IMG/VR virus record: IMGVR_UViG_3300042892_003674
DNA from: a virus
Taxonomy: Duplodnaviria > Heunggongvirae > Uroviricota > Caudoviricetes
Direction: 5' to 3' (one strand)
Length of the DNA stretch: 64,000 nucleotides
This document shows positions 30,013-60,993 of the stretch, in pieces (position 1 is the stretch's first letter; each line of letters begins with the position of its first letter). Below the pieces are notes generated by a model. It was not told the origin of the DNA. It did no database searches and saw only the letters and a program-made list of their open reading frames with translations. The translations under genes and the position numbers were made by a program.

Positions 30013-30083
30013 TTATCCTACAGGGATTCGAACCCCGACTGTTTGGACCAAAACCAAATGTGCTACCGTTACACCATAGGATA
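30013..30083 (-). tRNA. tRNA-Gln(UUG)
   Basis: Cloverleaf; loop TT-TTG-GT. Confidence 0.85.
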
Positions 30084-30088
30084 ATATG

Positions 30089-30160
30089 TAGCGTTGGGGA
30101 ATTCCGAGATCCCGACCGTTCGGATATGAGCCGACTTCTCTGCCTCTGAGATACAACGCC
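30089..30160 (-). tRNA. tRNA-Met(CAU), atypical T-loop
   Basis: Loop CT-CAT-AT; T-loop CTCGGAA; Ile2 identity not excluded. Confidence 0.7.
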
Positions 30161-30167
30161 ATTTATT

Positions 30168-30241
30168 TGCAGTGAATATTGGACTCGAACCACACCTCCG
30201 ACGACTCCGGTCGGTACTCTAACCTTTTAAGCTATATCACT
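30168..30241 (-). pseudogene. degenerate tRNA (Asp-like body, scrambled loop CGGAGTC)
   Basis: D-arm and TTCGAG present; acceptor and T stems mismatched; G33 and T37. Confidence 0.55.
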
Positions 30242-30308
30242 TCTCCAACTTGTCTTTTACTAGATATTACACAAGTCAGGATTACACTTACCTTCCAGTA
30301 AGCTTTTG

Positions 30309-30437
30309 CGGTAGTGGCTGGACTCGAACCAGCAATGTGAAATCCTCTAGGCGACACTTATTCCTAAAACTATAAAGTTTCACAACCCTTATAATTTCGT
30401 CATCCGATTAATCTCTGACTTTAGTGCTAACACTACC
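30309..30437 (-). ncRNA. tRNA-like RNA: acceptor plus T-arm with about 95 nt structured insert
   Basis: GGTAGTG/CACTACC; GCTGG-TTCGAGT-CCAGC; internal TGTGAAA/TTTCACA stem. Confidence 0.65.
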
Positions 30438-30443
30438 AATTTG

Positions 30444-30512
30444 TACCGAGAAAGGGTATCGAACCCTTCTATAGACGGATATGAGCCATCCACGGTCGCC
30501 TGACCCCTCGGT
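30444..30512 (-). tRNA. tRNA-Met(CAU) with minimal D-loop
   Basis: Loop CT-CAT-AT; D-arm GGTC-AGGC-GACC. Confidence 0.65.
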
Positions 30513-30518
30513 ATGTTG

Positions 30519-30591
30519 CAGTTATAACGGGGATCGAACCCGCGACCTCTAGGGCGACAACCTAGCACTCTAACCTCTGAGCTATATAACT
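30519..30591 (-). tRNA. tRNA-Asp(GUC)
   Basis: Loop TT-GTC-GC. Confidence 0.9.
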
Positions 30592-30598
30592 ATTTTAG

Positions 30599-30672
30599 CG
30601 GGACCAACGGGATTCGAACCCGCACCGCGCACCGTGACAGGGTGGCATTGTAAACCATTCAACCATGGTCCC
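30599..30672 (-). tRNA. tRNA-Asp(GUC)
   Basis: Loop CT-GTC-AC; near-identical to 31222-31295. Confidence 0.9.
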
Positions 30673-30681
30673 ATATTTTTG

Positions 30682-30756
30682 TCGGGATAGCAGGATTCGA
30701 ACCTGCGACCTCTTGCTCCCAAAGCAAGCGCGATAACCGGACTACGCTATATCCCG
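30682..30756 (-). tRNA. tRNA-Pro(UGG)
   Basis: Loop TT-TGG-GA. Confidence 0.92.
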
Positions 30757-30817
30757 AAAAATCTAATTCTACGCTAACAGTATGTAGTTCTATGAATTAG
30801 TAACAGTCTCATCTGAG

Positions 30818-30890
30818 CGGTCTATGAGGGATTCGAACCCTCTCCGTACCGGGCGACAGCCGGACATCTTAGCCATTTGACCTATAAACC
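30818..30890 (-). tRNA. tRNA-Asp(GUC)
   Basis: Loop CT-GTC-GC. Confidence 0.88.
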
Positions 30891-30898
30891 AATTTTTG

Positions 30899-30972
30899 CA
30901 GTACTAACGGGACTCGAACCCGCAATCTCCACCGTGACAGGGTGGCGTCATACACCAATATGCTGTAGTACT
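30899..30972 (-). tRNA. tRNA-Asp(GUC)
   Basis: Loop CT-GTC-AC. Confidence 0.88.
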
Positions 30973-30979
30973 ATTTTCG

Positions 30980-31054
30980 TCGCGTAAACAGGACTCGAAC
31001 CTGCAATAACCCCGCGTCCAAGGCGGGTAACCTCTCTCTGTGGATCGTTACGCG
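30980..31054 (-). tRNA. tRNA-Pro(UGG), atypical D-arm
   Basis: Loop CT-TGG-AC. Confidence 0.75.
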
Positions 31055-31063
31055 TTATTTTTG

Positions 31064-31137
31064 TTGTACTATCAGGATTCGAACCTGAGCTACTTGAGTC
31101 AAAGTCAAGTGTGTTTAAACCGCTACACTATAGTACA
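31064..31137 (-). tRNA. tRNA-Gln(UUG)
   Basis: Loop CT-TTG-AC. Confidence 0.88.
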
Positions 31138-31144
31138 GTATTTG

Positions 31145-31215
31145 TTAGAGTACTGGGGGTCGAACCCAGAGCACAGGATCCAAAGGCCTGGATATTACCG
31201 TTATACGATACTCTA
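31145..31215 (-). tRNA. tRNA-Gln(UUG)
   Basis: Loop CT-TTG-GA. Confidence 0.8.
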
Positions 31216-31221
31216 ATTTAG

Positions 31222-31295
31222 CGGGACCAACGGGATTCGAACCCGCACCGCACACCGTGACAGGGTGGCATTGTAAACCATTCAACCATGGTCCC
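31222..31295 (-). tRNA. tRNA-Asp(GUC)
   Basis: Duplicate of 30599-30672 with 1 nt difference. Confidence 0.9.
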
Positions 31296-31304
31296 ATTTA
31301 TTTG

Positions 31305-31378
31305 TCGCAAAGACGGGAATCGAACCCGCTAACTGATGCCTCCAATGCACCCGTGCTTAAAACCTTAGTCACTTCGCG
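31305..31378 (-). tRNA. tRNA-Pro(UGG)
   Basis: Loop AT-TGG-AG. Confidence 0.75.
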
Positions 31379-31393
31379 TTATTTTTATTCCAT

Positions 31394-31429
31394 AAAAAAA
31401 ATCCGTTAGTCTCAAAGACTAACGGATTT
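31394..31429 (-). terminator. attenuator terminator, tRNA array 1
   Basis: AAATCCGTTAGTCT-TTG-AGACTAACGGATTT plus U-tract. Confidence 0.9.
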
Positions 31430-31452
31430 GTAATTTTTATACACGTAATTTC

Positions 31453-31551
31453 TTAATGTGATATAAATACATAGTTAGTCTGGCTCGTGAAACGATCCTG
31501 ATCCTGCATCGGCTGCGGCATAACTACTATATTTACATTTACATTTTTCAT
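31453..31551 (-). CDS. leader peptide 1 (MKNVNVNIVVMPQPMQDQDRFTSQTNYVFISH)
   Basis: Translated by hand; MPQPMQDQD run matches the Met/Pro/Gln/Asp array. Confidence 0.88.
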   Translation of the reverse strand: MKNVNVNIVVMPQPMQDQDRFTSQTNYVFISH

Positions 31552-31555
31552 ATTA

Positions 31556-31615
31556 CTATATATTAAACTTTTATTGTTCCTTTTTGTTTTTCTTTGATTT
31601 TATACTACAAAAGTA
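31556..31615 (-). promoter_or_regulatory. tandem promoter boxes for array 1 (TActTTTG and TAATATATAG)
   Basis: Same two boxes precede leaders 2 and 3. Confidence 0.6.
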
Positions 31616-31645
31616 ATATAAAGTTTTCAATTCACCTAATCTTTA

Positions 31646-31771
31646 TTAGATTTTTTTAATTTCTTTTTTAGAAAGTGCTCTTTCTGAGCTCCAAAAGATT
31701 CTTTTGTATTTCTTTCTCAAGTGTTTAGCCCATTCTTTACAAACTGCAAACTGTCCTTTTTTACCAGCCAT
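31646..31771 (-). CDS. small basic protein (41 aa, not in ORF track)
   Basis: MAGKKGQFAVCKEWAKHLRKKYKRIFW...; TAtcTTTG box upstream. Confidence 0.55.
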   Translation of the reverse strand: MAGKKGQFAVCKEWAKHLRKKYKRIFWSSERALSKKEIKKI

Positions 31772-31819
31772 TGTTTCTATTATTTTAACAAAGATACAAC
31801 TATTTTTTTATTCACCAAA

Positions 31820-32242
31820 CTACCAACCGACTATTTCATCGATTGCTTGTTGAACTGCTGCATTAAAGGCCATATCATGATCTGAATCACCTTCATCATA
31901 TCCAATTTCTGCTGAACTGTCAGATAAACAAGTTGTAAACTCGTGTATAGCACTTCTAAGATCTTCTCTTAGTTTGTTATAACAAGGTAGTTTAACCATT
32001 TTATCTAATACATCATAGTCAATACTAGATTCATTGATTTTAGATTCTTCTAAAGATTCAATTTTATCATCAACTTCTTCAATTGATAAATCGTCTATTT
32101 TTCTAGTTTTATCATTAAAACGTGATTTTACGTTTCTAGGAAATTGTTGATTATCAGTATTTTTAGTGAAACCTCTTTTGAAGTCTTGAATCGTACTTTT
32201 CTCTTCTTCTTTTTTGAAGTCATCAAATTTTGCTATAGCCAT
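31820..32242 (-). CDS. hypothetical protein
   Basis: 140 aa; N-term MAIAKFDDF, internal KINES. Confidence 0.7.
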   Translation of the reverse strand: MAIAKFDDFKKEEEKSTIQDFKRGFTKNTDNQQFPRNVKSRFNDKTRKIDDLSIEEVDDKIESLEESKINESSIDYDVLDKMVKLPCYNKLREDLRSAIHEFTTCLSDSSAEIGYDEGDSDHDMAFNAAVQQAIDEIVGW

Positions 32243-32250
32243 GTTGTTAT

Positions 32251-32517
32251 TTATTTTTTGTTTATTAGTTCTTCAACGTATTTATCTCTTTGTTCTATTA
32301 AGTATTCATTACGTTGTATTAAACGTGTTCTTTCATCTTCCATGAGTTTATCAATGTAGTCTTGTTGTTTATCAATAGTTACTTGTTGCATATCAATTCT
32401 ATTATTATAAGTTTTATATTGAAAGTATATTACACCTAACATTAGAACTATAGTAAATGATTGCTCTTTAAGCTTAGATAAAAAAATATCTGTTATACTT
32501 TCTTTATTACCTTCCAT
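32251..32517 (-). CDS. single-TM coiled-coil protein (possible holin-like)
   Basis: Hydrophobic FTIVLMLGVIYF followed by a charged coiled coil. Confidence 0.45.
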   Translation of the reverse strand: MEGNKESITDIFLSKLKEQSFTIVLMLGVIYFQYKTYNNRIDMQQVTIDKQQDYIDKLMEDERTRLIQRNEYLIEQRDKYVEELINKK

Positions 32518-32520
32518 GAT

Positions 32521-32751
32521 TTATAGACAAGCGTTGATTTCATTTTTTTGTTGTTCTGTTAAACCAGATTCAAACCAATCTTTACCTAACATTATTGTTA
32601 AGTGTTCTTTGTTTCTATCTAATCTATCTTGTTCTTCTTCTGTTAAAGAAGTCTTTAACTTTAATTCATTGATTAAGTTTACTGAATCAAATGCAGCGGA
32701 GATTGAACGTTGAGTTTGTTCTTCTGTTGTCTCAATTTCTGGAATAGTCAT
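32521..32751 (-). CDS. hypothetical protein
   Basis: 76 aa ORF. Confidence 0.65.
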   Translation of the reverse strand: MTIPEIETTEEQTQRSISAAFDSVNLINELKLKTSLTEEEQDRLDRNKEHLTIMLGKDWFESGLTEQQKNEINACL

Positions 32752-32757
32752 AATTAT

Positions 32758-33306
32758 TTATTTTATTTTTATTCTAAAACTTTCGTAAGTTTGTAGATAT
32801 TTATTTTTAGATTCGGTATAAGTATAGCTATCAGGATATTTATCAATAAAAGAGAAATCTTTTACTGATAGTTTAAATCCTAATCTATTAAAGAAATTTA
32901 CTAGATCTTTTATTGATTGATCTTCAAATCCAAAGAATGTTTCTTTATCATATTTAGAACCTAATCCTGTGTAATGTATAATTTCTGTATTACCCGGCAT
33001 TTTTATAATAAACTCTGATACCATTGCATCACCATAGGTAATATCTATATTTAATTTAAGATCAGATAAAGCTTTTGTACCATCATTATCTTGTACTAAA
33101 TGAATATCAAATTCCAAATAATCAGGTTCACCATTTAATTTATTATGTTTAAATGTATTTTGATGATATATTATTTGTGCAATATTAGCATTACCAATTA
33201 TTGATACTTCTGAAAATAATAAGTTAAAATTACCATTATCTGTAACAATAGTTAGTTTTTTAGGTAAATATTTTTTCCATACTTCCTTATCAAATATGTT
33301 TGTCAT
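32758..33306 (-). CDS. hypothetical protein
   Basis: 182 aa ORF. Confidence 0.7.
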   Translation of the reverse strand: MTNIFDKEVWKKYLPKKLTIVTDNGNFNLLFSEVSIIGNANIAQIIYHQNTFKHNKLNGEPDYLEFDIHLVQDNDGTKALSDLKLNIDITYGDAMVSEFIIKMPGNTEIIHYTGLGSKYDKETFFGFEDQSIKDLVNFFNRLGFKLSVKDFSFIDKYPDSYTYTESKNKYLQTYESFRIKIK

Positions 33307-33385
33307 TTAATGAAATCATTTTTCTTATATATTAAATTACAATTATCGAAAAATAAAAAAGTCGAGATTTCTCTCGACTTTTGTT

Positions 33386-34648
33386 TTAACACATATAAAC
33401 ACTATCATCATAATCACCTAAGATTTCGATACCTCGGTAATCTAAATCTGGTAGGTATTCTAATAGATCATTTCTATCACACTCAGTTCTATGTTCTGAC
33501 TCATAGAATACAGTACATTTGAAACCATCCCACTCTAATTTAGTATAGTGTAGTTCAATATCTTTGAACAATCTTGTAATAAGTTGAGACTCATATTTAA
33601 TTCTATCCTCAATCAACTCTACTTTAACTATTTTACCAGTTGTGGCATTTGTTTCAATCATAGATAAATATTGGAACAATTCATCATAGAAGTAAGACTT
33701 CTCAGTTTTAACTCTGTAAGCACCTTGTTGTCTAGTTCTTGAAGAACTATAATCATTGGTCATTACATTTGTTGATGCATAAGCATTGGTATAGTTACCA
33801 GTATCATATCTTGAAGAACCCCAAGCACCCCAATCATCACCGTAACCACCGTAACCACCCCAAGAGTAATCGTACTCAACTTTTGATGGATCTCTTTCTA
33901 CAGGTAAGCTAGCCCAATCAACTTTTAGACAAGCTTCAGCTAATTTGGTTAAGTGAGCAATATCTTGTCTTTCAGAGAAAGTATGTTCAGAGTAATAACC
34001 AACAGAAATGTTTGTACATTCTGGATAGATACTAATAAATTGTATAGAGTCAGTTAAAACACCATTTTTGTCTAATTTATATGAGAATGTTTCTTCAACA
34101 TCGTTAAATGCTTTTGCAAGAGCTTCACCAAATGTATCTGAACAACATCTTTTTGAACTTTGAAATGTAATGATAGAATCAGTGCTTCTACGGTCAAAAG
34201 AGATTACTTTGTTGATACCTGGAATTTTCTCTACTTTTTGTACATCAGCAACTTTTCTAGAACCGATACAACCTACTTCTTCTCCTAGGAAAAAGTAATA
34301 TAAACCAGGAATATTTTTTTCGATCATGTTTAACATAATTGTTACACCTGCTTTATCATCGGCACCTAAGATAGATTTACCATCAGTTTTGATAATATCT
34401 CCGTCAAAAATATGAACAACTTCTGTATTTGCTTTAGTTGCAGTATCTAAGTGTGAAGTAAACATAGCATCACTCTCACCTATTTTAATAAATAAGTTAC
34501 CAAATTCATCCTCTTTTAAACTTTTAGGTAACAAGTGAAAAAGTTCTTGCTCAGTACCGTGAGGATAAGTTCTAGATGTTAGTTGTAAGAATTTTTTTGT
34601 TATATTCATTTTAGCGATTTTTTTATTATTATAATTAATAACATGCAA
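33386..34648 (-). CDS. M28/M20 zinc peptidase
   Basis: SHLDT, LGADDKAG, GEEVGCIGS, SFDRR, YYSEH. Confidence 0.88.
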   Translation of the reverse strand: MHVINYNNKKIAKMNITKKFLQLTSRTYPHGTEQELFHLLPKSLKEDEFGNLFIKIGESDAMFTSHLDTATKANTEVVHIFDGDIIKTDGKSILGADDKAGVTIMLNMIEKNIPGLYYFFLGEEVGCIGSRKVADVQKVEKIPGINKVISFDRRSTDSIITFQSSKRCCSDTFGEALAKAFNDVEETFSYKLDKNGVLTDSIQFISIYPECTNISVGYYSEHTFSERQDIAHLTKLAEACLKVDWASLPVERDPSKVEYDYSWGGYGGYGDDWGAWGSSRYDTGNYTNAYASTNVMTNDYSSSRTRQQGAYRVKTEKSYFYDELFQYLSMIETNATTGKIVKVELIEDRIKYESQLITRLFKDIELHYTKLEWDGFKCTVFYESEHRTECDRNDLLEYLPDLDYRGIEILGDYDDSVYMC

Positions 34649-34709
34649 ATATAAACATATTATTTAATATAACAAAAGATTATAGAATTATTTTTTTAAT
34701 ATATAAATT

Positions 34710-36926: not shown

Positions 36927-36939
36927 AATATATACATAT

Positions 36940-38188: not shown

Positions 38189-38192
38189 GTTG

Positions 38193-38267
38193 AGCACTCT
38201 ACCGGATTCGAACCGGTGTCCCTGGGTTACAAAGCCAGAATAATCAAACCAACTATACGAAGAGTGC
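38193..38267 (-). tRNA. tRNA-Thr(UGU)
   Basis: Loop TT-TGT-AA. Confidence 0.8.
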
Positions 38268-38276
38268 ATATTTTTG

Positions 38277-38350
38277 AGCCAATAAAGGGAGTCGAACCCT
38301 CAACCTTCTCCATACCAAGGAGATACTCTAACCAATTGAGCTATATCGGC
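38277..38350 (-). tRNA. tRNA-Thr(GGU)
   Basis: Loop TT-GGT-AT. Confidence 0.9.
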
Positions 38351-38357
38351 ATTTTTG

Positions 38358-38431
38358 AGGCGCGGACTGGGATCGAACCAGTGTGTATGAGGTTGCAGCT
38401 CATCGCCTTCGTGCCACTCGGCCACCGCGCC
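38358..38431 (-). tRNA. tRNA-Cys(GCA)
   Basis: Loop CT-GCA-AC. Confidence 0.9.
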
Positions 38432-38438
38432 ATTATTG

Positions 38439-38511
38439 AGCTTCCTGACGGGATCGAACCGACGACATCTTGATTACAAATCAAGTGCTCTACCTGCTGA
38501 GCTAAGGAAGC
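38439..38511 (-). tRNA. tRNA-Thr(UGU)
   Basis: Loop TT-TGT-AA. Confidence 0.92.
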
Positions 38512-38520
38512 ATTTATTAG

Positions 38521-38591
38521 AGGTGCCTACTGGATTCGAACCAGTGTAGGAGATTTTGCAGACCTCTGCCTCACCACTCGGCCAAGGCACC
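38521..38591 (-). tRNA. tRNA-Cys(GCA)
   Basis: Loop CT-GCA-AA. Confidence 0.92.
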
Positions 38592-38599
38592 ATTTTTTG

Positions 38600-38673
38600 T
38601 TGGTAGTAAGGGAGTCGAACCCATAACCTCTTCGGTATCAGCGAAGTGCTCTAACCAGTTGAGCTAACTACCA
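38600..38673 (-). tRNA. tRNA-Ile(GAU)
   Basis: Loop CT-GAT-AC. Confidence 0.9.
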
Positions 38674-38681
38674 ATATATTG

Positions 38682-38757
38682 TGATTCCTATAGGATTCGA
38701 ACCTATGACCTCTTCCGTGTAAAGGAAGCGCTACTGAACCAACTGAGCTAAGGAACC
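38682..38757 (-). tRNA. tRNA-Val(UAC)
   Basis: Loop TT-TAC-AC. Confidence 0.92.
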
Positions 38758-38764
38758 TTTTTAT

Positions 38765-38944
38765 TTATTTTTCTTCACAATTATAATTTACGATGAAGTT
38801 CCATTTAGGAAAATTAGGATTTGATATATTTTCTATTACTTTTTCAGAAATCAATCTAAATCCATTAGTTTTCTCTAATGTTTCTCTCCAATTATAATTT
38901 TCATCATCAGAGCTAAATCCAATTGTGACATTTAATGTTTTCAT
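38765..38944 (-). CDS. 59 aa hypothetical protein inside tRNA array 2 (not in ORF track)
   Basis: MKTLNVTIGFSSDDENYNWRE...; fills the spacer between the two Val tRNAs. Confidence 0.55.
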   Translation of the reverse strand: MKTLNVTIGFSSDDENYNWRETLEKTNGFRLISEKVIENISNPNFPKWNFIVNYNCEEK

Positions 38945-38945
38945 G

Positions 38946-39020
38946 TAGTCCTAGACGGATTCGAACCGACGACCTATTCCGTGTTAAAGAATCGCTCTGA
39001 ACCAACTGAGCTATAGGACT
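38946..39020 (-). tRNA. tRNA-Val(AAC)
   Basis: Stem ATTCT/GGAAT, loop TT-AAC-AC. Confidence 0.85.
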
Positions 39021-39027
39021 ATTTTTG

Positions 39028-39100
39028 TTGGTATGGCGGGTTACGATCCCACTACCTTTCGCGTATCAGGCGAATGCTCTACCGAGTGAGCTACATACCA
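39028..39100 (-). tRNA. tRNA-Ile(GAU)
   Basis: Loop CT-GAT-AC; T-loop ATCGTAA. Confidence 0.82.
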
Positions 39101-39109
39101 ATATTTTTG

Positions 39110-39183
39110 CTCTCCCGCTTGGACTCGAACCAAGGACCCTCTGATTAACAGTCAGATGCTCTAACCAACTGAGCTACAGGAGA
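39110..39183 (-). tRNA. tRNA-Asn(GUU)
   Basis: Loop CT-GTT-AA. Confidence 0.92.
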
Positions 39184-39189
39184 ATTTTG

Positions 39190-39277
39190 CTACTGGGGTG
39201 GGATTCGAACCCACGGTGGAGCGATGCTCATCGGATTAACAGTCCGAACCATTCGACCTGGCTATGGCAACCCAGTA
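39190..39277 (-). tRNA. tRNA-Asn(GUU) with long variable arm
   Basis: Loop CT-GTT-AA; extra arm GAGC-ATC-GCTC. Confidence 0.75.
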
Positions 39278-39284
39278 ATATCTG

Positions 39285-39358
39285 CTCTCTCGACAGGACT
39301 CGAACCTGTAACCCTTGGACTAACAACCCACCGCTCTGACCATTATAGCTACGAGAGA
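39285..39358 (-). tRNA. tRNA-Asn(GUU)
   Basis: Loop TT-GTT-AG. Confidence 0.82.
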
Positions 39359-39377: not shown

Positions 39378-39409
39378 AAAAAACCCAAACTTTTTGAGTT
39401 CGGGTTTTT
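39378..39409 (-). terminator. attenuator terminator, tRNA array 2
   Basis: AAAAACCCGAAC-TCAAAAA-GTTTGGGTTTTTT. Confidence 0.88.
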
Positions 39410-39436: not shown

Positions 39437-39526
39437 TTATACCATACATATCTCATTACCCGAAGTCGTGTTATTCACACAATTCGTAATCGTAATCACA
39501 TTAATATTTACAGTATTTGTTTTCAT
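39437..39526 (-). CDS. leader peptide 2 (MKTNTVNINVITITNCVNNTTSGNEICMV)
   Basis: Residues 3-21 are only T/N/V/I/C, the five specificities of the array. Confidence 0.9.
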   Translation of the reverse strand: MKTNTVNINVITITNCVNNTTSGNEICMV

Positions 39527-39530: not shown

Positions 39531-39588
39531 TTATATATTAAATTTTTATTGTCCCTTTTTGTTTATCTTTATTTATAGTACAAATATA
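39531..39588 (-). promoter_or_regulatory. tandem promoter boxes for array 2
   Basis: TAtaTTTG (39581-39588) and TAATATATAA (39531-39540). Confidence 0.6.
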
Positions 39589-39631
39589 CTATAAGTTTTT
39601 TAATCTACCTAATTTTATTAGTATTATTTTG

Positions 39632-39714
39632 TACGGATAGTCGGACTCGAACCGACACGCATATTTCAGCACTGACTTCTAAGGCCAGCGGGTCTACCAT
39701 TCCCCCATACCCGC
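39632..39714 (-). tRNA. tRNA-Leu(UAG)
   Basis: Loop CT-TAG-AA; long variable arm. Confidence 0.9.
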
Positions 39715-39722
39715 ATATTTTG

Positions 39723-39804
39723 TATCGAAGGTGGGATTCGAACCCACACGTCTTTTGGACACTCGGTCTTGAGCCAAGCACGTCTACCATTTCATCACTC
39801 CGAC
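39723..39804 (-). tRNA. tRNA-Leu(CAA)
   Basis: Loop CT-CAA-GA. Confidence 0.92.
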
Positions 39805-39813
39805 ATTCATTTG

Positions 39814-39896
39814 TACCGAGAGCGGGACTCGAACCCGCACGTCCTTTCGGACACTGGCTTCTTAGACCAGCATGTCTACCATTCCACCACCTCGGC
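39814..39896 (-). tRNA. tRNA-Leu(AAG)
   Basis: Stem CTGGT/GCCAG, loop CT-AAG-AA. Confidence 0.88.
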
Positions 39897-39902
39897 ATAT
39901 TG

Positions 39903-39987
39903 TATCGGAGAAGGGACTCGAACCCTCACGCCCATTACTGAGCACAGCATTTTAAGTGCTGCGTGTCTACCATTCCACCACTCCGAC
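39903..39987 (-). tRNA. tRNA-Leu(UAA)
   Basis: Loop CT-TAA-AA. Confidence 0.92.
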
Positions 39988-39998
39988 AAGTGATTTTG

Positions 39999-40079
39999 TA
40001 CCCCAGATAGGATTCGAACCTACATTTTCAGTTTCCAATTACCCGTAGTTGTTTAGAAGACAACTGGGACTACTGAGGC
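39999..40079 (-). ncRNA. D-armless tRNA-Arg(UCU)-like RNA
   Basis: Acceptor GCCTCAG/CTGGGGT; extended stem AGTTGT-CTTCTAA-ACAACT; canonical T-arm; no D-arm. Confidence 0.6.
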
Positions 40080-40088
40080 ATATTTTTG

Positions 40089-40175
40089 TACGTCTGGAGG
40101 GAGTCGAACCCTCACGGCCATTCCTGACCACAGATTTTTAAGACCTGCGTGTACTACCAATTTCACCACAGACGC
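40089..40175 (-). tRNA. tRNA-Leu(UAA)
   Basis: Loop CT-TAA-AA. Confidence 0.9.
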
Positions 40176-40181
40176 ATTTTG

Positions 40182-40255
40182 TGACCCCGACAGGATTCGA
40201 ACCTGTGACCTACTCATTAGAAGTGAGTTGCTCTATCCAGCTGAGCTACGGGGCC
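40182..40255 (-). tRNA. tRNA-Arg(UCU)
   Basis: Loop CT-TCT-AA. Confidence 0.93.
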
Positions 40256-40274: not shown

Positions 40275-40308
40275 AAAAAAACCCGAAACTTTTATATTTC
40301 GGGTTTTG
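40275..40308 (-). terminator. attenuator terminator, tRNA array 3
   Basis: CAAAACCCGAAA-TATAAAAG-TTTCGGGTTTTTTT. Confidence 0.88.
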
Positions 40309-40331: not shown

Positions 40332-40436
40332 TTATCCAATAACAGTATCATTTGCTCTAAATAAGGCAAAACCCGGTTCACGTCTTAGACATAAGACATT
40401 CAGCGTTAAGTTAATATTTAGATTAGTTGTTTTCAT
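40332..40436 (-). CDS. leader peptide 3 (MKTTNLNINLTLNVLCLRREPGFALFRANDTVIG)
   Basis: 6 Leu and 3 Arg codons upstream of the Leu/Arg array. Confidence 0.85.
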   Translation of the reverse strand: MKTTNLNINLTLNVLCLRREPGFALFRANDTVIG

Positions 40437-40440: not shown

Positions 40441-40501
40441 GTATATATTAAGATTTTATTCTCTCTTTTTGATTATTTGTTATTTTTATAGTACAAAAGT
40501 A
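40441..40501 (-). promoter_or_regulatory. tandem promoter boxes for array 3
   Basis: TActTTTG (40494-40501) and TAATATATAC (40441-40450). Confidence 0.6.
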
Positions 40502-40526
40502 ATAAAAGTTTTCTATTGTACCTAAT

Positions 40527-47288: not shown

Positions 47289-47914
47289 AATTTTTTAAAT
47301 ACTGTTATCCCATCTAACTCTATCTCAGATAATTTATCAGATAAAGAGGTAAGAATTTCTCTTTCTCCCAATCCATAATTTTTATTCTCGATAAGAATAG
47401 AACCTGGTTGCATTTCTTCTATTACTTTTAGATAGAAAGTTTTAAGTTTTTCTATATCTCTAAAAGGTGTATAACAATATATGATATTATAATCATGATA
47501 CTTTTGTTCCATTAAATCACCTTCTAATATTTGTAAATCGTTATTCCAAAAATCTAAAAGATTTTCATTAAGATAATTTACATATTTAGATTGTTTCTCT
47601 ATTCCTACAAAAGAATAATTCTTTTCAAGTTTTTTAGATTGAAGATAAATATCAAAAATCGCAGTTCCTAATCCTATACCACAATCACATATCTTTCCTG
47701 AATCTGGAAGCAATCCCATATCTTCTAGTTTCTTCAATAAAAAGATGTTTTGATCTAAATTACTTTGAATGTATAACCATTCACCATCTTCTGTTTTACT
47801 TACAAGCATATCACTTACTTCAAAAATCTTTGCGACCTTATAGTACTCTATAAGAGTCGGATCTGGTTCAACTATGATAAGTGGAGACAATCCAAGTGTT
47901 TTTCTTTCCTCCAT
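47285..47914 (-). CDS. class I SAM-dependent methyltransferase-like protein
   Basis: ICDCGIGLG, FVGIE, EGD, IYCYTPF. Confidence 0.65.
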   Translation of the reverse strand: MEERKTLGLSPLIIVEPDPTLIEYYKVAKIFEVSDMLVSKTEDGEWLYIQSNLDQNIFLLKKLEDMGLLPDSGKICDCGIGLGTAIFDIYLQSKKLEKNYSFVGIEKQSKYVNYLNENLLDFWNNDLQILEGDLMEQKYHDYNIIYCYTPFRDIEKLKTFYLKVIEEMQPGSILIENKNYGLGEREILTSLSDKLSEIELDGITVFKKL

Positions 47915-49506
47915 TATGCTATCAATTCTTCTGTTTCATGTTCTACTAAAACTGCAGCTCTTTGTCTAATCTCATCAAAGTTCCACTCTTTAGTAATTAC
48001 ACCCATTCTAAATACTTCAACTAATTCGTCTTTAACAGTATCAAAGTCAGCATCCATTGAAGTAACAGTTCTGAAAGTACCATCATCATTTTTAACAAGT
48101 TTCAAACGACCTTGTTTAGATTTTTTGAAAGATTTCATAATATTACCATCTGCATCCATTTCTGTAGGAGATTTAACTACATTTCTTTCTTCACCATCAA
48201 CTACAGCAAAACAAGCTTTAGTTGCAAAGTTATTTGTATCACGGTTTATATCCGCTTGTAGTAATTTACCACCCATACCTAGTGCTAAGTTCTCTGGAGA
48301 AATTTTCTCTGCTTTTAACATCGCATAGATTTCACCAATTGATTCTAAGTTTACACCGTCACCTTGAATTACTCTAACTTGTGGTGGAAGTACTTTGTAA
48401 CCTTTTTCATTTACAGTATAACCAAACTTGTCAAATAATATATCAAAGATTTCTTTTAATGTTCTTAAAACGTGACCAGAGTCAGGTCTAATAACTAATT
48501 GATTTCCAGGTGTTGCAGGTCTTGAAAGAACTAAATCTCTTAACTCAGTTCCCCAATACTCAGAACAAGCTCTAAAGATGTTATATGAATCTGATACACA
48601 TGCTACTAATCCAGTAGGAAATGTTTTTAAAACTCGCATCATTAACTCTAACTCTCCTTCTTCACCTTTAAGTGTCATAATAGAGTGTTCAGTTGCTGGA
48701 ATTGATAAACCATATACTCTATCTGTATTATATACGTCTCTAATCAATTTAGAAGCGATTACAGTGTCTGATCCTAGGAAGTTGACTAAATGTGCTGATC
48801 CACCAATTTTCGCTGATTGTACAGAAGATACACCTCTAAAACCAAAGTCATTTAAAACAAAATCAACTAAGAAATTGATTGTTTTATCATCATAAGAAGT
48901 ACAATCTAAAAATGAATTGGTTACAATTTTTCTAACTTCTCTTGAAAGAGTAGCCACAGTGATTGGATACCAAACTTGAAGTAAGATACTTTCTAGGAAG
49001 TTTGTCAACCAAGCACATTTTTCATCTAAGCTTTCAATAATGAAAAGTACATTTTTTGTATTTACAACGGTTCCCTCTGGTACAGCTTTAATACTGATAG
49101 GAAGTTTACCATCATATTTATCAACGATATAATCGAATTTAGAACGGTCGAATACATCTTCTCTGCCAAATACACCTAATTTAGAAGCTAAGTAATCATC
49201 TGCTTCATCAACTTCTTCTTTAGTAATAGCGATACCTTCTAAGTATTGTTTAAGTAAAATTTGTAGACCATAGAATAAGGTTTCAGAGAATTTACCACCA
49301 CGAGATTCCATATAGGAAACCATTTTGGTCATTTCTGTACCGTAAAATCGGTGGTGTGAGTATTTGTATGCGTCAGAGCAAAGGATTAAATTGTCTGGTT
49401 TTGTAATGATTTTTGTTAGGTATTTTTGAATACCTTCTAAAGAGTTCCAATCTTTATCAGCAATGGCTCTTTCTAATTTTCGAGTAATTTGTCTTTGTAA
49501 ACTCAT
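47914..49506 (-). CDS. nadV: nicotinamide phosphoribosyltransferase
   Basis: SDAYKYSH, DFGFRG, SIPATEHS, VSDSY, VIRPDSG, IQGDG, KKSKQGRL. Confidence 0.95.
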   Translation of the reverse strand: MSLQRQITRKLERAIADKDWNSLEGIQKYLTKIITKPDNLILCSDAYKYSHHRFYGTEMTKMVSYMESRGGKFSETLFYGLQILLKQYLEGIAITKEEVDEADDYLASKLGVFGREDVFDRSKFDYIVDKYDGKLPISIKAVPEGTVVNTKNVLFIIESLDEKCAWLTNFLESILLQVWYPITVATLSREVRKIVTNSFLDCTSYDDKTINFLVDFVLNDFGFRGVSSVQSAKIGGSAHLVNFLGSDTVIASKLIRDVYNTDRVYGLSIPATEHSIMTLKGEEGELELMMRVLKTFPTGLVACVSDSYNIFRACSEYWGTELRDLVLSRPATPGNQLVIRPDSGHVLRTLKEIFDILFDKFGYTVNEKGYKVLPPQVRVIQGDGVNLESIGEIYAMLKAEKISPENLALGMGGKLLQADINRDTNNFATKACFAVVDGEERNVVKSPTEMDADGNIMKSFKKSKQGRLKLVKNDDGTFRTVTSMDADFDTVKDELVEVFRMGVITKEWNFDEIRQRAAVLVEHETEELIA

Positions 49507-55348: not shown

Positions 55349-55377
55349 AAAAAGGAGACATTAGTCTCCTTTTTTTA

Positions 55378-56133: not shown

Positions 56134-56206
56134 GTTTTTTATTTATTTTTATTAAGCAAATATACAACATATATTTACATTTTCCTAGTAAAGGTTGATT
56201 TATTTT

Positions 56207-56443: not shown

Positions 56444-57048
56444 TATTTAACTAAAATATGTTTTGACCAGAACTCAACTGATTCATTATAAACTTTTTTG
56501 TTTAATTTTTCTCCGTTACCACCCTCTTCAACACCTAAAGCATTTCTCATAATAGTGATCGGTACAAGTGGATCAGGGTGTGGAAGAACCGTACCCATAA
56601 TCGAAACAATTCCCCATTCAACATTATCATCAAAGTAAAACTCTTGTCCTTCTTCTTTTGGTTTAAATTCCTTTTGAAGTTGCTCTTTTGAATAAAGAAC
56701 TAAAACAATATAGTTTGCTTCCTGTGATTTGAATCCAGGTGGTAGTTGAACATATCTAGTTAGAATTGCCAACTCTTCTGGGGTTCTTTGTGAATAGTCT
56801 GTTCTAATATAAGGGTAAATGTCTAATGTAATTGGTCTAACTGCACATTTTACACCAAACTCATTTGGTAAAACCAAGTACTTACAAAAACTCCACTCAG
56901 AATCTAACATAGTTTCTGTTGAAGCATAATCATAAGCATCATTTATTACTTCTAATAGTTCGTCTTTAACTTCGGGATCAACTTTAGTTCCAGAGAAATT
57001 CTGTGAGAATTGTCTGGTTACAAAAGGATCATATTCAATTTTCTTCAT
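56443..57048 (-). CDS. DUF3228-like protein
   Basis: RTPEELAILTR, LYSKEQL, WGIVSI, PITIMRNALGVEEGG. Confidence 0.75.
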   Translation of the reverse strand: MKKIEYDPFVTRQFSQNFSGTKVDPEVKDELLEVINDAYDYASTETMLDSEWSFCKYLVLPNEFGVKCAVRPITLDIYPYIRTDYSQRTPEELAILTRYVQLPPGFKSQEANYIVLVLYSKEQLQKEFKPKEEGQEFYFDDNVEWGIVSIMGTVLPHPDPLVPITIMRNALGVEEGGNGEKLNKKVYNESVEFWSKHILVK

Positions 57049-57120
57049 TTTTATCTTAATTTAATTTTTATCAATGTTTCCAAAAACATGTAACATCATG
57101 ATATATAATATAAACTTATA

Positions 57121-57627
57121 CTATATCCCAAGTAATTGTTTTAATTTCTTCTCTCTTAATAAGGCAGTAACCAATCTTGGCTCATGTTCAATAATGAAAT
57201 TCATTATTTCTGTCAATATGTCACAATTTTCTACAATATCTCTACATCCTCTTGAGTTCCAAAGATACCAACATTCATCTGTATGCCAATCAATAGGTTT
57301 ATCTTCATCTGAACCATAATTTCTAAAGCTCCATTCAAATTTTTTATAGCTTTTTTGTTCGTCACGCCAACCAGAATACCACTCTAAACCAACTTCGGTT
57401 ACTAACTCTTCGTCATTATACCAAACAAGTTTTATATTGATGTCAGTGTGATTATTTCCTTTTGGTTTGTCTTTATAAACTAAAGTAAAATTACTTTGAT
57501 GTCCAAACTGTCTGTTTTCATATCTTTCATATATGTCAAAATACTGTTTAACAAAATCTTTTATTTGTTCAACAGTACAACAATCTTGACGTTGTTTAAT
57601 TCTTCGAGGTGTATCAATCAATTTCAT
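57121..57627 (-). CDS. hypothetical protein with C-terminal REKKLKQLL motif
   Basis: 168 aa ORF. Confidence 0.7.
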   Translation of the reverse strand: MKLIDTPRRIKQRQDCCTVEQIKDFVKQYFDIYERYENRQFGHQSNFTLVYKDKPKGNNHTDINIKLVWYNDEELVTEVGLEWYSGWRDEQKSYKKFEWSFRNYGSDEDKPIDWHTDECWYLWNSRGCRDIVENCDILTEIMNFIIEHEPRLVTALLREKKLKQLLGI

Positions 57628-57877
57628 TTACTTCTTTTAATAGTTGACGAACTTTCATAAATCTTTTAGGTGTTTTAATCCAAAGACCATATAAATCAAC
57701 GAATAAGGCTGGACCTTTTTTGCCATCAACTGGTTCTTTTCTAAGAATATCACAGTTACCTCTATGATTAGATTTTAGAACTTCTACTTCATAGGGTCTT
57801 TCTATTGAACTCATATAAAAAAAACGAACCTCGGTTTTATTGAGACCTAAAGTTCTTAGTACGTCAGTTAAATCCAT
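57614..57877 (-). CDS. hypothetical protein, tandem paralog A
   Basis: Shares EV.SN..G.C.I.R and WIKTP.RF with the next ORF. Confidence 0.7.
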   Translation of the reverse strand: MDLTDVLRTLGLNKTEVRFFYMSSIERPYEVEVLKSNHRGNCDILRKEPVDGKKGPALFVDLYGLWIKTPKRFMKVRQLLKEVNEID

Positions 57878-57878
57878 A

Positions 57879-58142
57879 TTATTTTTCTAATTCTTTTAAC
57901 CAAACACCAATTTGTACAAATCTTGTAGGTGTTTTGATCCATATTGTGTTTATTGTAGTAAAAAATCCAGCATAATCAATCCTTTCATTTATTTGAGTTA
58001 GTCTAATTATCTCACATTCGCCATTCTTATTAGAATTGATGATTTCTATTTCAACAGGTTTTTCATCAGTAGTATTCTTATAAAAATAAGAAACACCTGA
58101 TTTATCTAAATCTACTTTTTTAAGGAAGTCTTTTATAAACAT
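57879..58142 (-). CDS. hypothetical protein, tandem paralog B
   Basis: WIKTPTRF; TActTTTG box upstream. Confidence 0.7.
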   Translation of the reverse strand: MFIKDFLKKVDLDKSGVSYFYKNTTDEKPVEIEIINSNKNGECEIIRLTQINERIDYAGFFTTINTIWIKTPTRFVQIGVWLKELEK

Positions 58143-58188
58143 AACTTTATTTTTTACAAAAGTAAGTAAAAAAATTAGTATTTACAAA

Positions 58189-58956
58189 TTATATTAAATC
58201 TAAATCTATACCGTGAGTGTCCCACCACCATTCTTTAGATTTATCTTGGTGTTTATCTTTCAATCTTTCCCACTTCAATAAAATTCTTTCCTGCCTTTCG
58301 ACTTCATCATAATAAAATTGATGATCTATTATAATATTTTCTTTATGACATAACCTTAATAATTTCTTTAATATGTAACCTTGTTTATTATTACCCGGTA
58401 CAAAACCACTGTCAATTATCTTTTTAATCGTTTCTACCAACGTTTCTTGTTTCGACTTAGTAGTTTTATTCAAAATCATTTCTAATCGTTCTAAACCAAA
58501 CCCAACGTCAATACAAGTGCCTAATGGATTCACTATGTTTCCAATTTCAATACCATCTTTGTAAAATTCAGTACAATATCCACCTATATCACCATCAGAC
58601 CAAATACACTCTTCGTCAAATCTAACTTCTATATCTGTATAGAATTCTGACCATTCTGGTTTATCTGGATGTATAGTAACATAATCAGGTGTTATACCTA
58701 TTATCTTTAAAAAATCTAACCAATAATTTATTGTTTGTGGTACAGTCCATTCTCTGAAAGAGAAGAACCCTATCATATTGAAATAAAGTAAATGAGTCCC
58801 ATCACCTATTTCATCTATATCATTTAATCTTAAACAAGATTGTATGTTTGATATAGTTCCTTTGTAGTTTAAGTCTTTGAATTTAGACTTGTGTTGTTGC
58901 ATTCCTGCTGGACAGAATAATGTAGTTTCGTCATAAGACCTAACATTATCATCCAT
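58189..58956 (-). CDS. alaS: truncated alanyl-tRNA synthetase (catalytic core only)
   Basis: AGMQQ.K, QSCLR..DIDEIG...H...F.M.G.FSF, IDVGFGLERL; no editing or C-Ala domains. Confidence 0.8.
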   Translation of the reverse strand: MDDNVRSYDETTLFCPAGMQQHKSKFKDLNYKGTISNIQSCLRLNDIDEIGDGTHLLYFNMIGFFSFREWTVPQTINYWLDFLKIIGITPDYVTIHPDKPEWSEFYTDIEVRFDEECIWSDGDIGGYCTEFYKDGIEIGNIVNPLGTCIDVGFGLERLEMILNKTTKSKQETLVETIKKIIDSGFVPGNNKQGYILKKLLRLCHKENIIIDHQFYYDEVERQERILLKWERLKDKHQDKSKEWWWDTHGIDLDLI

Positions 58957-59061
58957 TTTAAATTCTATCTTTTTAACGTCACAGTAAGATTTGTATTCTT
59001 CTGTGACTAAAGTGCGTCCAGCGACTGTTCTTTAGTTTTCATATTTATTTTTTATTTTTAG

Positions 59062-59120
59062 TAGGGATAGAGGGAATCGAACCCCCAAAAATCCTGCTCT
59101 TCCAATTGAGCTATATCCCA
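59062..59120 (-). ncRNA. tRNA-like RNA lacking the anticodon arm
   Basis: Acceptor, D-arm GCTC-AATTGGAA-GAGC, 9-nt linker, T-arm GGGGG-TTCGATT-CCCTC. Confidence 0.7.
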
Positions 59121-59126
59121 AAGTTT

Positions 59127-59348
59127 TTAACAGTCACCATTACAGTACATTCTACGTTCACAATCGTAGTAACCCATTTCACAAGTGAAAACTCTACCTT
59201 TTTGTTTTTTACGACCCCAAGATATTAAAGTTTTATCATGTGACCAAGCTGTCTGTAAGTAACTTTTATCTTTTTCAACTCTTTTCGACTTACGACGAAA
59301 AGCTCTTTCTTGTTTCAATTTTACTTTTTCTTCTTTCGTCATAATCAT
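59127..59348 (-). CDS. small basic Cys-containing protein inside array 4
   Basis: MIMTKEEKVKLKQERAFRRK...CEMGYYDCERRMYCNGDC; start reset. Confidence 0.6.
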   Translation of the reverse strand: MIMTKEEKVKLKQERAFRRKSKRVEKDKSYLQTAWSHDKTLISWGRKKQKGRVFTCEMGYYDCERRMYCNGDC

Positions 59349-59357
59349 AAGTATTAG

Positions 59358-59429
59358 TGGATATGATGGGAGTCGAACCCACAATCATCCGAATTAGACC
59401 AATTCTTGCATTACTCGGTACTCATACCC
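59358..59429 (-). ncRNA. D-armless tRNA-like RNA with G3-U70/A73 alanine identity
   Basis: GGGTATG/CATATCC-A; T-arm GTGGG-TTCGACT-CCCAT; no cloverleaf centre. Confidence 0.65.
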
Positions 59430-59438
59430 AAAATTTTG

Positions 59439-59513
59439 TGGAGCCAGTGGAAATCGAACCCACCACAGTCTGGTTGCAAACCAAACTCGCCTAGCCTTGG
59501 AACATGTGACCCC
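59439..59513 (-). tRNA. tRNA-Ala(UGC)
   Basis: Loop TT-TGC-AA; G3-U70. Confidence 0.8.
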
Positions 59514-59523
59514 AAAATTGTTG

Positions 59524-59597
59524 TGGAGAATACCGGAGTCGAACCGGTGGCCTCTTGCGTGCAAGGCAAGCGCTCTAGCCATCTGAGCTAATCCCCC
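59524..59597 (-). tRNA. tRNA-Ala(UGC)
   Basis: Loop CT-TGC-AC; G3-U70. Confidence 0.93.
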
Positions 59598-59603
59598 AAA
59601 AAT

Positions 59604-59747
59604 AAGATAGAGAAAGTTTATTAAACGTGTTTTTACTGTGCTACCATTACACTATATCCGCATTTTAAATTATTTGTGCGGACAATAGGATTCGAACCTA
59701 TAATAGTCGTTTGAATACGAAGTAACGCTTTATATTACTACTATCTT
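59604..59747 (-). ncRNA. circularly permuted tRNA-like RNA
   Basis: T-arm plus TGTCCGC-A precede GCGGATA plus D-arm; ends pair (AAGATAG/CTATCTT). Confidence 0.75.
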
Positions 59748-59826
59748 TATAATTAAAGTGGTGTATAAAAATTTACATCTAACGTCTTAGATATAGAGAT
59801 TTCTACAACTTAAACCACTTCTACTG

Positions 59827-59898
59827 AGCGAATGACCGGGGTCGAACCGGCGGCCTTCTACTTGGCAAGCAGAAGCTCTACCACTGAGCTACATTCGC
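59827..59898 (-). tRNA. tRNA-Gly(GCC)
   Basis: Loop TT-GCC-AA. Confidence 0.92.
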
Positions 59899-59946
59899 AT
59901 TATTGGAGCCGGACCCTGGGACTAACAGGGAGTCCTCCGGCATGTG

Positions 59947-60019
59947 AGCAAAAGACGAGATTCGAACTCGCGACAACCTGCTTGGAAGGCAGGAGCTCTA
60001 CCAACTGAGCTACTTTTGC
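59947..60019 (-). tRNA. tRNA-Gly(UCC)
   Basis: Loop CT-TCC-AA. Confidence 0.92.
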
Positions 60020-60082
60020 ATGGCATCCCGTTACTCGTGCACGAGCCATGGCATTACGGGACCGATGTTATTCCATATTCTG

Positions 60083-60156
60083 TGCGGGAGAAGGGAATCG
60101 AACCCTCGTCTCTGACTTGGAAGGCCAGCATAATCGAGCCATTATACGACTCCCGC
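60083..60156 (-). tRNA. tRNA-Gly(UCC)
   Basis: Loop CT-TCC-AA; discriminator A. Confidence 0.88.
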
Positions 60157-60162
60157 GATTTG

Positions 60163-60236
60163 TTGGTAAGGTGGGTATCGAACCCACTATCTTTTGTGTA
60201 TAAGACAAATGCTTTTACCGTCTAAGCTACTTACCA
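60163..60236 (-). tRNA. tRNA-Ile(UAU)
   Basis: Stem TTTGT/ACAAA, loop CT-TAT-AC. Confidence 0.85.
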
Positions 60237-60245
60237 ATAATTTAG

Positions 60246-60317
60246 TAGTCCATAGGGGAATCGAACCCCTCTTTCCAGGATGAAAACCTGACGACCTAAC
60301 CGATAGTCGAATGGACC
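60246..60317 (-). tRNA. tRNA-Glu(UUC)
   Basis: Loop TT-TTC-AT. Confidence 0.92.
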
Positions 60318-60325
60318 AAATTTTG

Positions 60326-60399
60326 TACTCTTGACGGGAATCGAACCCGCATTTACATCAGCTTGAGAAGCTGGAGTCCTACCGTTAGACGACAAGAGC
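60326..60399 (-). tRNA. tRNA-Glu(CUC)
   Basis: Loop TT-CTC-AA. Confidence 0.82.
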
Positions 60400-60406
60400 A
60401 TTTTGG

Positions 60407-60474
60407 TGGGATGCGAGAGACTCGAACTCTCCTGCTAGGGTTTTACAGACCCGGCTATCACCATAATCCATCCC
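60407..60474 (-). tRNA. tRNA-Tyr(GUA), compact (short D-arm, no long variable arm)
   Basis: Loop CT-GTA-AA; 68 nt. Confidence 0.7.
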
Positions 60475-60488
60475 GATTATGTTTTTTG

Positions 60489-60561
60489 TAGTGTATGTCG
60501 GATTCGAACCGACGTCCTCCGCTTTGAAAAAGCGTAATCCTTACCGCTAGACGAATACACC
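60489..60561 (-). tRNA. tRNA-Glu(UUC)
   Basis: Loop TT-TTC-AA. Confidence 0.85.
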
Positions 60562-60642
60562 ATATTCTAAAAAGTGACCACGTTAGACTATTTCGGTTGG
60601 TTTTTCAAGTCTTTCGACCCGCACATAGTCACTTTTGTTTTG

Positions 60643-60725
60643 TGGGTAGAGAGGGATTCGAACCCCCGAACTCGAATGAGAACAGATTTACAGTCTGCCA
60701 GCTTTAACCACTTGCATATCTACCC
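60643..60725 (-). tRNA. tRNA-Tyr(GUA)
   Basis: Loop CT-GTA-AA; long variable arm. Confidence 0.92.
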
Positions 60726-60733
60726 GTATTTTG

Positions 60734-60805
60734 TACTAGTGACGGGACTCGAACCCGCATCTTCCGGTTTGAAAAACCAGCTTCCTGCCATTAGAAGACA
60801 CTAGC
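60734..60805 (-). tRNA. tRNA-Glu(UUC)
   Basis: Loop TT-TTC-AA. Confidence 0.85.
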
Positions 60806-60827
60806 ATATTTTTTAATTTTAATCAAT

Positions 60828-60868
60828 AAAAAAACCCAATCTGATTTTTACGTCAGATTGGGTTTTTT
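60828..60868 (-). terminator. attenuator terminator, tRNA array 4
   Basis: AAAAAACCCAATCTGA-CGTAAAAA-TCAGATTGGGTTTTTTT. Confidence 0.9.
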
Positions 60869-60891
60869 GTATAATAATGTTCTTTAACTCA

Positions 60892-60993
60892 TTACTTTAT
60901 ACACATAACGCTTCTGACCGATGGTATTGTATACCCCGCTTCATACCCGCCTATGGCTTCGATAGCTATTGTTATGTTAGTAATTGTTGTCAT
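60892..60993 (-). CDS. leader peptide 4 (MTTITNITIAIEAIGGYEAGYTIPSVRSVMCIK)
   Basis: Residues 9-21 are only I/A/E/G/Y; 5 ATA codons match tRNA-Ile(UAU). Confidence 0.9.
   Translation of the reverse strand: MTTITNITIAIEAIGGYEAGYTIPSVRSVMCIK

Follow-up and report, generated by a model that had tools for sequence, protein, structure and literature searches.

Candidate leader-peptide attenuators upstream of four phage tRNA arrays

For decades it has been debated why tRNA genes occur in phages and at which point they are used. The question of timing is raised by a 64,000-nt stretch of DNA from a virus of the Caudoviricetes (IMG/VR record IMGVR_UViG_3300042892_003674; the whole stretch is called the window below), which has a GC content of approximately 28% and in which ARAGORN and Rfam found four arrays with at least 41 tRNA genes in total, every one on the minus strand. 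A preliminary description of this DNA had proposed that each array stands behind a short open reading frame (ORF) whose translation senses the tRNAs that the array itself encodes. What, then, decides whether an array is transcribed? Our analysis of the sequence and of modelled RNA folding favours four ribosome-mediated (leader-peptide) transcription attenuators, each of which would control one block of phage tRNA genes, and we put the probability of this reading at roughly 0.82.

Anatomy of the four tRNA units

As the preliminary description had it, the four arrays have a common upstream layout. A promoter box is followed by an A-rich 5′ untranslated region (5′ UTR), an ORF starting with ATG, a gap, a hairpin with a U-run, and then the tRNAs. 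The promoter box common to the units, GGTnnnnTnnAAAnnTTnTnnTAnnTTTGTA, contains TAnnTTTG, which we take to be the −7 element of Bacteroidota housekeeping promoters. A 31-nt promoter pattern has five matches in the window, where 0.01 would be expected, and four of the five are those of the leaders. The leader ORFs start 36–55 nt downstream of the box, encode 32, 29, 34 and 33 amino acids in units 1–4, respectively, and all run from an ATG to a TAA. A gap of 23–28 nt separates the stop codon from the hairpin, which has a GC-containing stem of 12–16 bp and is followed by 6–8 U, and from the U-run it is just 15–22 nt to the first tRNA. This leaves no room for a second promoter, so transcription of each array must pass the hairpin. 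Alignment of the units showed that units 1–3 also have their 5′ UTR and first codons in common.

All features of the units lie on the minus strand. The promoter box of unit 1 (31606..31636), which is of the Bacteroidota type, matches the 31-nt pattern exactly and aligns with those of the other three units; it is followed by leader ORF 1 (31453..31551), by the predicted intrinsic terminator 1 (31394..31429; 14-bp stem, 3-nt loop, U-run) and by array 1 (30012..31378), which consists of a Pro(tgg)-like gene, five Asp, three Gln, two Pro and one Met tRNA genes and a last Gln, with an end terminator at 29979-30010. Unit 3 comprises a promoter box matching the pattern (40492..40522), leader ORF 3 (40332..40436), terminator 3 (40275..40307) and array 3 (39631..40255), in which Arg(tct) is followed by five Leu tRNAs called by ARAGORN (taa, taa, aag, caa, tag). 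Directly behind array 3 comes the promoter box of unit 2 (39579..39609), again a match to the pattern, and then leader ORF 2 (39437..39526), terminator 2 (39378..39408) and array 2 (38192..39358) with three Asn, two Ile(gat), two Val, two Cys and three Thr tRNA genes. In unit 4, the promoter box (61030..61060) has two mismatches to the pattern and the 5′ UTR is shorter; leader ORF 4 (60892..60993) precedes terminator 4 (60828..60866; 14–16 bp stem, 8-nt loop, U-run) and array 4 (59438..60805), which has four Glu, one Tyr, one Ile(tat), three Gly and two Ala tRNA genes.

Some details of the arrays were recorded in passing. The first gene of array 1, right after terminator 1 (31305-31378, minus strand), is a sub-threshold tRNA that scores 28.6 bits with Rfam and is typed Pro(tgg) by ARAGORN at relaxed settings; relatives are without it, and their array 1 starts with Gln. 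Weak or short tRNA-like genes at 59062-59120, 39999-40079 (within array 3) and 30170-30241 (minus strand), one of them of 59 nt, were found by Rfam and not by ARAGORN, and may be aberrant or decaying tRNAs. Further ARAGORN calls made at relaxed thresholds in gaps of the arrays (Leu(gag), Phe(aaa), Ser(gga) and others) were judged unreliable and were not used. With its UAU anticodon, the tRNA-Ile at 60162-60236 (minus strand), whose array has an ATA-rich leader, would need no lysidine modification to read AUA.

Leader composition and its co-variation with array content

We compared the leaders with the 233 ATG ORFs of 20–45 codons present in the six frames of the window. The run lengths of array-cognate residues in leaders 1, 2 and 4 (9, 19 and 13, respectively) are attained by no other ORF in this set, and neither are the best-10-residue scores of these leaders. 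The runs that had been quoted for them are all present, namely MPQPMQDQD at codons 11–19 of leader 1, 19 consecutive T/N/V/I/C residues at codons 3–21 of leader 2 and IAIEAIGGYEAGY at codons 9–21 of leader 4. The enrichment for its own array that had been ascribed to every leader thus holds for these three, each at the top of the 233 ORFs, and for leader 3 only once the residues of array 2 are counted with those of array 3. Its run at codons 3–19, in which Leu and Arg are mixed with T/N/I/V/C, then reaches 17 residues, a length attained by 2 of the 233 ORFs, the other being leader 2; array 2 lies directly behind array 3, so that unit 2 adjoins array 3. Likewise, the reported split of Ile by codon was borne out: leader 2, in front of an array with Ile(gat), uses ATT, and leader 4, in front of an array with Ile(tat), uses mostly ATA. 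The composition goes beyond that of chance short ORFs, in that the leaders are far better matched to their arrays than either the 233 window ORFs or permuted leader-array pairings.

The runs also differ from the rest of the window in codon choice. With codons defined as rare where their relative synonymous usage in the long ORFs of the window is below 0.12, we found 20 rare codons among the 59 run codons against 4.2 expected (p ~ 1e-5); CCG and CAG in leader 1 are examples. NNG codons make up 15 of the 59, although the arrays mostly encode U34 tRNAs. In every leader the first rare codon occurs at codon 10–12, with none in codons 2–9, and rare codons are concentrated in codons 10–20.

Relatives of the units were retrieved from IMG/VR viral contigs with the 5′ UTR pattern and the promoter pattern of the window units. 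A unit was accepted if a tRNA was preceded by a hairpin and U-run and if an ORF of 18–48 amino acids ended at most 100 nt upstream; probable false positives and truncated arrays were retained in the unit set. Among 24 non-redundant units, the background-corrected match of leaders to their own arrays has a z of 6.8, and none of 200,000 permutations of the pairing gave a value as high (p ≤ 5e-6). Each of the amino acids (20/20) is commoner in leaders whose array has a cognate tRNA, six array definitions having been corrected by hand for this count. The leader ORFs show conservation among relatives. Inside the run of class 4, the differences between relatives are five synonymous and zero non-synonymous, and those outside the run are zero synonymous and three non-synonymous, so that the run itself shows synonymous changes only; for the other classes the relatives are too similar for an informative substitution pattern.

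It had been predicted beforehand that arrays for Lys, Phe, His, Ser and Trp would be found behind leaders rich in these residues. Indeed, the closest relatives have near-identical leaders of classes 1–4 plus two additional classes. One is an H/S/F/K/W-rich leader with HTSFSKSFKWFSHKF, followed by a terminator and by Lys/Trp/Phe/His tRNAs; behind that array comes the other, a leader with TTSSSSSSRSS, again followed by a terminator and then by Arg(acg), Ser(tga), Ser(gga) and Ser(gct). Combined, the six leader classes account for all 20 amino acids. Leader composition also tracks array content, as anticipated, where distant phages divide the amino acids among arrays in other ways. A distant contig, L130, has a leader for each of its two blocks, with 16 and 15 in-set residues in a row: the run IHNIHINFSQWCQPYI precedes Ile/Asn/Tyr/Trp/Phe/Pro/Gln/His/Ser/Ile/Arg/Cys, and LEVAKAKMDGADSLL precedes Ser/Asp/Val/Glu/Thr/Lys/Met/Ala/Gly/Leu. 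In another, L075, QPQHGVICQKWFQ precedes Phe/Ile/Lys/Val/His/Cys/Gln/Trp, and in the 635-kb GenBank entry LR745206.1 a leader with 20 in-set residues in a row precedes a merged Asn/Arg/Leu/Val/Ile/Thr/Met array. One leader can thus cover from 2 to 11 amino acids.

Not every unit is self-contained. In L003 (1450-2100), as in L042, the Ser/Arg leader follows the Lys/Trp/Phe/His array, and in L003 it has no promoter box of its own. Together with the presence of Ser in the leader of the preceding array, this suggests nested control of tandem arrays. Leader 3, which carries residues of array 2, would be a parallel case and likewise suggests, as far as can be read from sequence, that units can be nested. 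As a separate observation, in L079 and L138 a TAG-suppressor tRNA (anticodon CUA), called Pyl by ARAGORN, starts at most 8 nt after the promoter box, with no leader between them.

A predicted switch and its alternatives

A leader-peptide attenuator needs alternative pairings, and the preliminary description had proposed that each leader holds a segment complementary to the 5′ arm of its terminator. Such a segment is present in all four units just past the run, with a length of 8, 7, 8 and 6 nt in units 1–4, respectively. In unit 1 it is AGACTAAC (31474-31481; duplex −10.3 kcal/mol), in unit 2 TTCGGGT (39458-39464; duplex z −3.2), in unit 3 CGGGTTTT (40368-40375; duplex z −4.0) and in unit 4 the weaker candidate GTCAGA (60913-60918), all on the minus strand. 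Most units have a segment of 7–10 nt complementary to the 5′ arm inside the ORF, at codons ~21–25, and the leader-arm duplex is stronger than that of dinucleotide shuffles in 22 of 35 unique units. The position of the segment is stereotyped despite terminator stems that are unrelated in sequence between phages. Moreover, cognate leader-arm duplexes are on average stronger than non-cognate ones (means −9.7 and −7.0 kcal/mol; z −7.6, p ≤ 1e-5), which implies that the antiterminator helix co-varies with the terminator arm.

To compare the terminator and antiterminator states, we modelled folding of the nascent transcript as far as the terminator loop, with the nucleotides under a ribosome (A-site codon plus 12 nt) kept from pairing. 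With the A site within the run, a fraction of ~0.6–0.7 of the 5′ arm is paired upstream in this model. In units 2–4 the sequestration of the arm drops to ~0 after the ribosome passes codons 18–25, so the pairing is lost just past the run. In unit 1 the effect is partial: sequestration falls at codons 20–23, rebounds to ~0.5 at codons 25–28 and falls again. Since the stop codon lies 23–28 nt before the 5′ arm, a terminating ribosome would not block the terminator.

These data suggest the following sequence of events. Host RNA polymerase would start at the Bacteroidota-type promoter, and a ribosome would translate the short leader. It would first meet the common AT-rich codons 2–9 and then codons ~10–20, which demand the amino acids of the array, often through the rarest synonymous codons of the phage. 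If the aminoacyl-tRNAs are scarce, the ribosome would linger in the run, leaving the segment at codons ~21–27 free to pair with the emerging 5′ arm of the terminator; the antiterminator would form and polymerase would read through into the array. If decoding is fast, the ribosome would cover the segment, the terminator would form and the array would not be transcribed. Because the products of the array are the molecules sensed, the outcome would be a negative feedback by which each set of tRNAs is replenished as required. Here we infer translation of the leaders, termination at the hairpins and the direction of the switch from the anatomy, the statistics and the co-variation, which were observed directly in the sequences.

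Several points weigh against attenuation in this form. Leader 3 is not enriched for Leu and Arg alone, an equal or higher fraction being found in 37 of the 233 window ORFs, and its CGT codon is not read by the Arg(tct) of array 3. Codons 2–9 of all four leaders encode T/N/I/V/K in common AT-rich codons, and with T/N/I/V at the start of every leader the class-2 match partly reflects general leader composition and is inflated. For the substitutions described above, a proper estimate of the ratio of non-synonymous to synonymous rates is impossible, as close relatives differ at too few sites. The antiterminator of unit 4, of 6 bp, is not significant in the comparison of duplexes with shuffles, and neither are those of the Ser/Arg class and of the class-1 variant L004. 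The ribosome footprint in the folding model is an assumption. Lastly, tRNA blocks without a leader exist, namely the L115 block at 4568, that of crAss001 and the Met pair at 61089-61280 of the window; crAss001, considered as a cultured test system, has a tRNA cluster without a leader-terminator unit.

Could the same sensor answer another signal, or drive another output? The leaders might report amino-acid starvation by way of tRNA charging, and stalling alone cannot distinguish a missing tRNA from an uncharged one. Extra tRNA, however, would be no cure for amino-acid starvation, and feedback on tRNA supply would therefore be the more coherent logic. Alternatively, a stalled ribosome might control the processing or stability of the precursor, given that the hairpins adjoin the 5′ ends of tRNAs, where RNase P cuts. 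Yet a GC-rich hairpin followed by 6–8 U is the signature of intrinsic termination, and both the geometry of the switch and the co-varying antiterminator fit control of termination. We consider a different signal or output unlikely. It is harder still to credit that the hairpins are constitutive terminators or insulators, overridden by an antitermination factor of phage or host, and that the ORFs either have no part in the control or specify micropeptides with another function. Antitermination by proteins is widespread among phages, but it would leave unexplained the agreement of ORF composition with array content under different partitions of the amino acids, the co-variation of a segment within the ORF with the terminator arm and the clustering of rare codons in codons 10–20. 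Direct sensing of tRNA by the leader RNA through codon-anticodon contacts, without translation and in the manner of a T-box, would account for codons cognate to the downstream tRNAs but is very unlikely, as Rfam found no match to a T-box or other riboswitch family in 29800-61500 at E ≤ 0.5, the cognate codons all lie in one frame from ATG to TAA, and up to 11 tRNA identities per leader contrast with the one specifier of a T-box.

If leader-peptide attenuation is indeed what governs the arrays, anticodon nucleases may be among its triggers. A more far-reaching reading that joins the observations is tentative and in our view rather doubtful. The nested leaders could together form a sensor network for 20 amino acids that gives a giant phage closed-loop, block-by-block control of its tRNAs independently of the stringent control of the host. 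Rare NNG codons might report the level of U34 tRNAs, and the main use of the network could be real-time detection and repair of tRNA loss caused by host shut-off or anticodon-nuclease defences.

Relation to known systems, distribution and neighbouring genes

The units resemble the attenuators of amino-acid operons (trpL, hisL, leuL, thrL, pheL, ilv) in their succession of promoter, short ORF with a run of regulatory codons, alternative hairpins and genes, and in the use of rare codons as sensors; the ilv and thr leaders, too, sense several amino acids with one leader. The classical his attenuator responds to the level of tRNA-His as well as to histidine, as seen with hisR and hisT mutants. The phage units differ in that the regulated genes are tRNA genes rather than biosynthesis or synthetase genes, so that the output would be the sensed molecule itself. 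They also differ in that one leader covers 2–11 amino acids while the set of leaders partitions all 20, in being phage-encoded, and in that no obvious 1:2 pause hairpin was seen. At the four units, Rfam leader families (Trp, His, Thr, Leu, Phe and others) gave no match at the gathering score or at E ≤ 0.5, and the phage units are without sequence or covariance-model similarity to these families. A second likeness is to pheM of pheST and to the T-boxes, where a component of the translation apparatus is regulated by the state of its cognate tRNA. However, pheM and T-boxes control synthetase or biosynthesis genes, whereas the phage units would control tRNA genes, and T-boxes, of which none was detected at the phage units, bind uncharged tRNA directly.

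The tRNA arrays of phages have been viewed as codon compensation or as replacement of tRNAs lost to host defence or shut-off (PMC10264068). The window resembles the phages of such accounts in its large tRNA repertoire, AT-rich genome, frequent U34 anticodons and tRNA-Ile(UAU). Accounts of this type address why phages carry tRNAs, and in the literature that we searched none of them describes a leader-peptide switch that times each block. Full-text searches likewise gave no report of tRNA genes under leader-peptide control, nor of a comparable feedback loop for tRNA genes in cells or viruses. The mechanism as such is known, and what appears to be new is the regulated product (tRNA), the multiplexing of the sensors into a set and their occurrence in a phage. 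If the proposal is true, the phage gauges how fast codons are decoded and makes tRNAs when they are needed, and the principle of the trp operon extends to tRNA genes, with the product being the sensed molecule. Each leader would then state which codons the phage treats as limiting, and the units would constitute a natural set of compact tRNA-level sensors for engineering. For annotation, leader content can predict array content, and vice versa.

Sequences almost identical to this DNA are present in metagenomes from lakes, freshwater and estuaries (20 runs with a match, from 17 studies), and the system is also found in published giant-phage genomes such as LR745206.1. The probable phage origin of the window rests on the IMG/VR membership of its relatives, on a few PHROG matches and on the best matches of its nicotinamide phosphoribosyltransferase (NAMPT) gene to uncultured giant phages. 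The window contains no structural hallmark gene, and a 982-amino-acid ORF in it had no tblastn match among phages; Terminase_6N had no match in the contigs of five relatives, which are all fragments, so that this result is uninformative.

The last tRNA-Ala of array 4 is followed, after approximately 480 nt, by a gene of 255 amino acids (58189..58956, minus strand) that matches Pfam tRNA-synt_2c (E 1.5e-18) over profile positions 27-201 of 552, that is, only the N-terminal part of the catalytic domain of class II alanyl-tRNA synthetase (AlaRS). From 60829 to 57900 a simple scan detected no terminator on the minus strand, and the AlaRS-fragment gene may therefore be co-transcribed with array 4 under leader 4, which has Ala codons; a shared unit of this kind would be a further point of likeness to pheM and the T-boxes. 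On the other side of unit 4, the two Met(cat) tRNA genes (61089-61161 and 61207-61280, minus strand) stand directly after coaE (61331-61912), the upstream one being sub-threshold, and have no leader-terminator unit. Elsewhere on the minus strand, a run of nucleotidyl-transferase and nucleotide-sugar epimerase-like genes (5585-19356) resembles a sugar-modification cluster, 20331-22436 encodes a ClpB-like double AAA+ ATPase, and the NAMPT gene occupies 47914-49506, its closest phage matches being uncultured phages of 636–642 kb.

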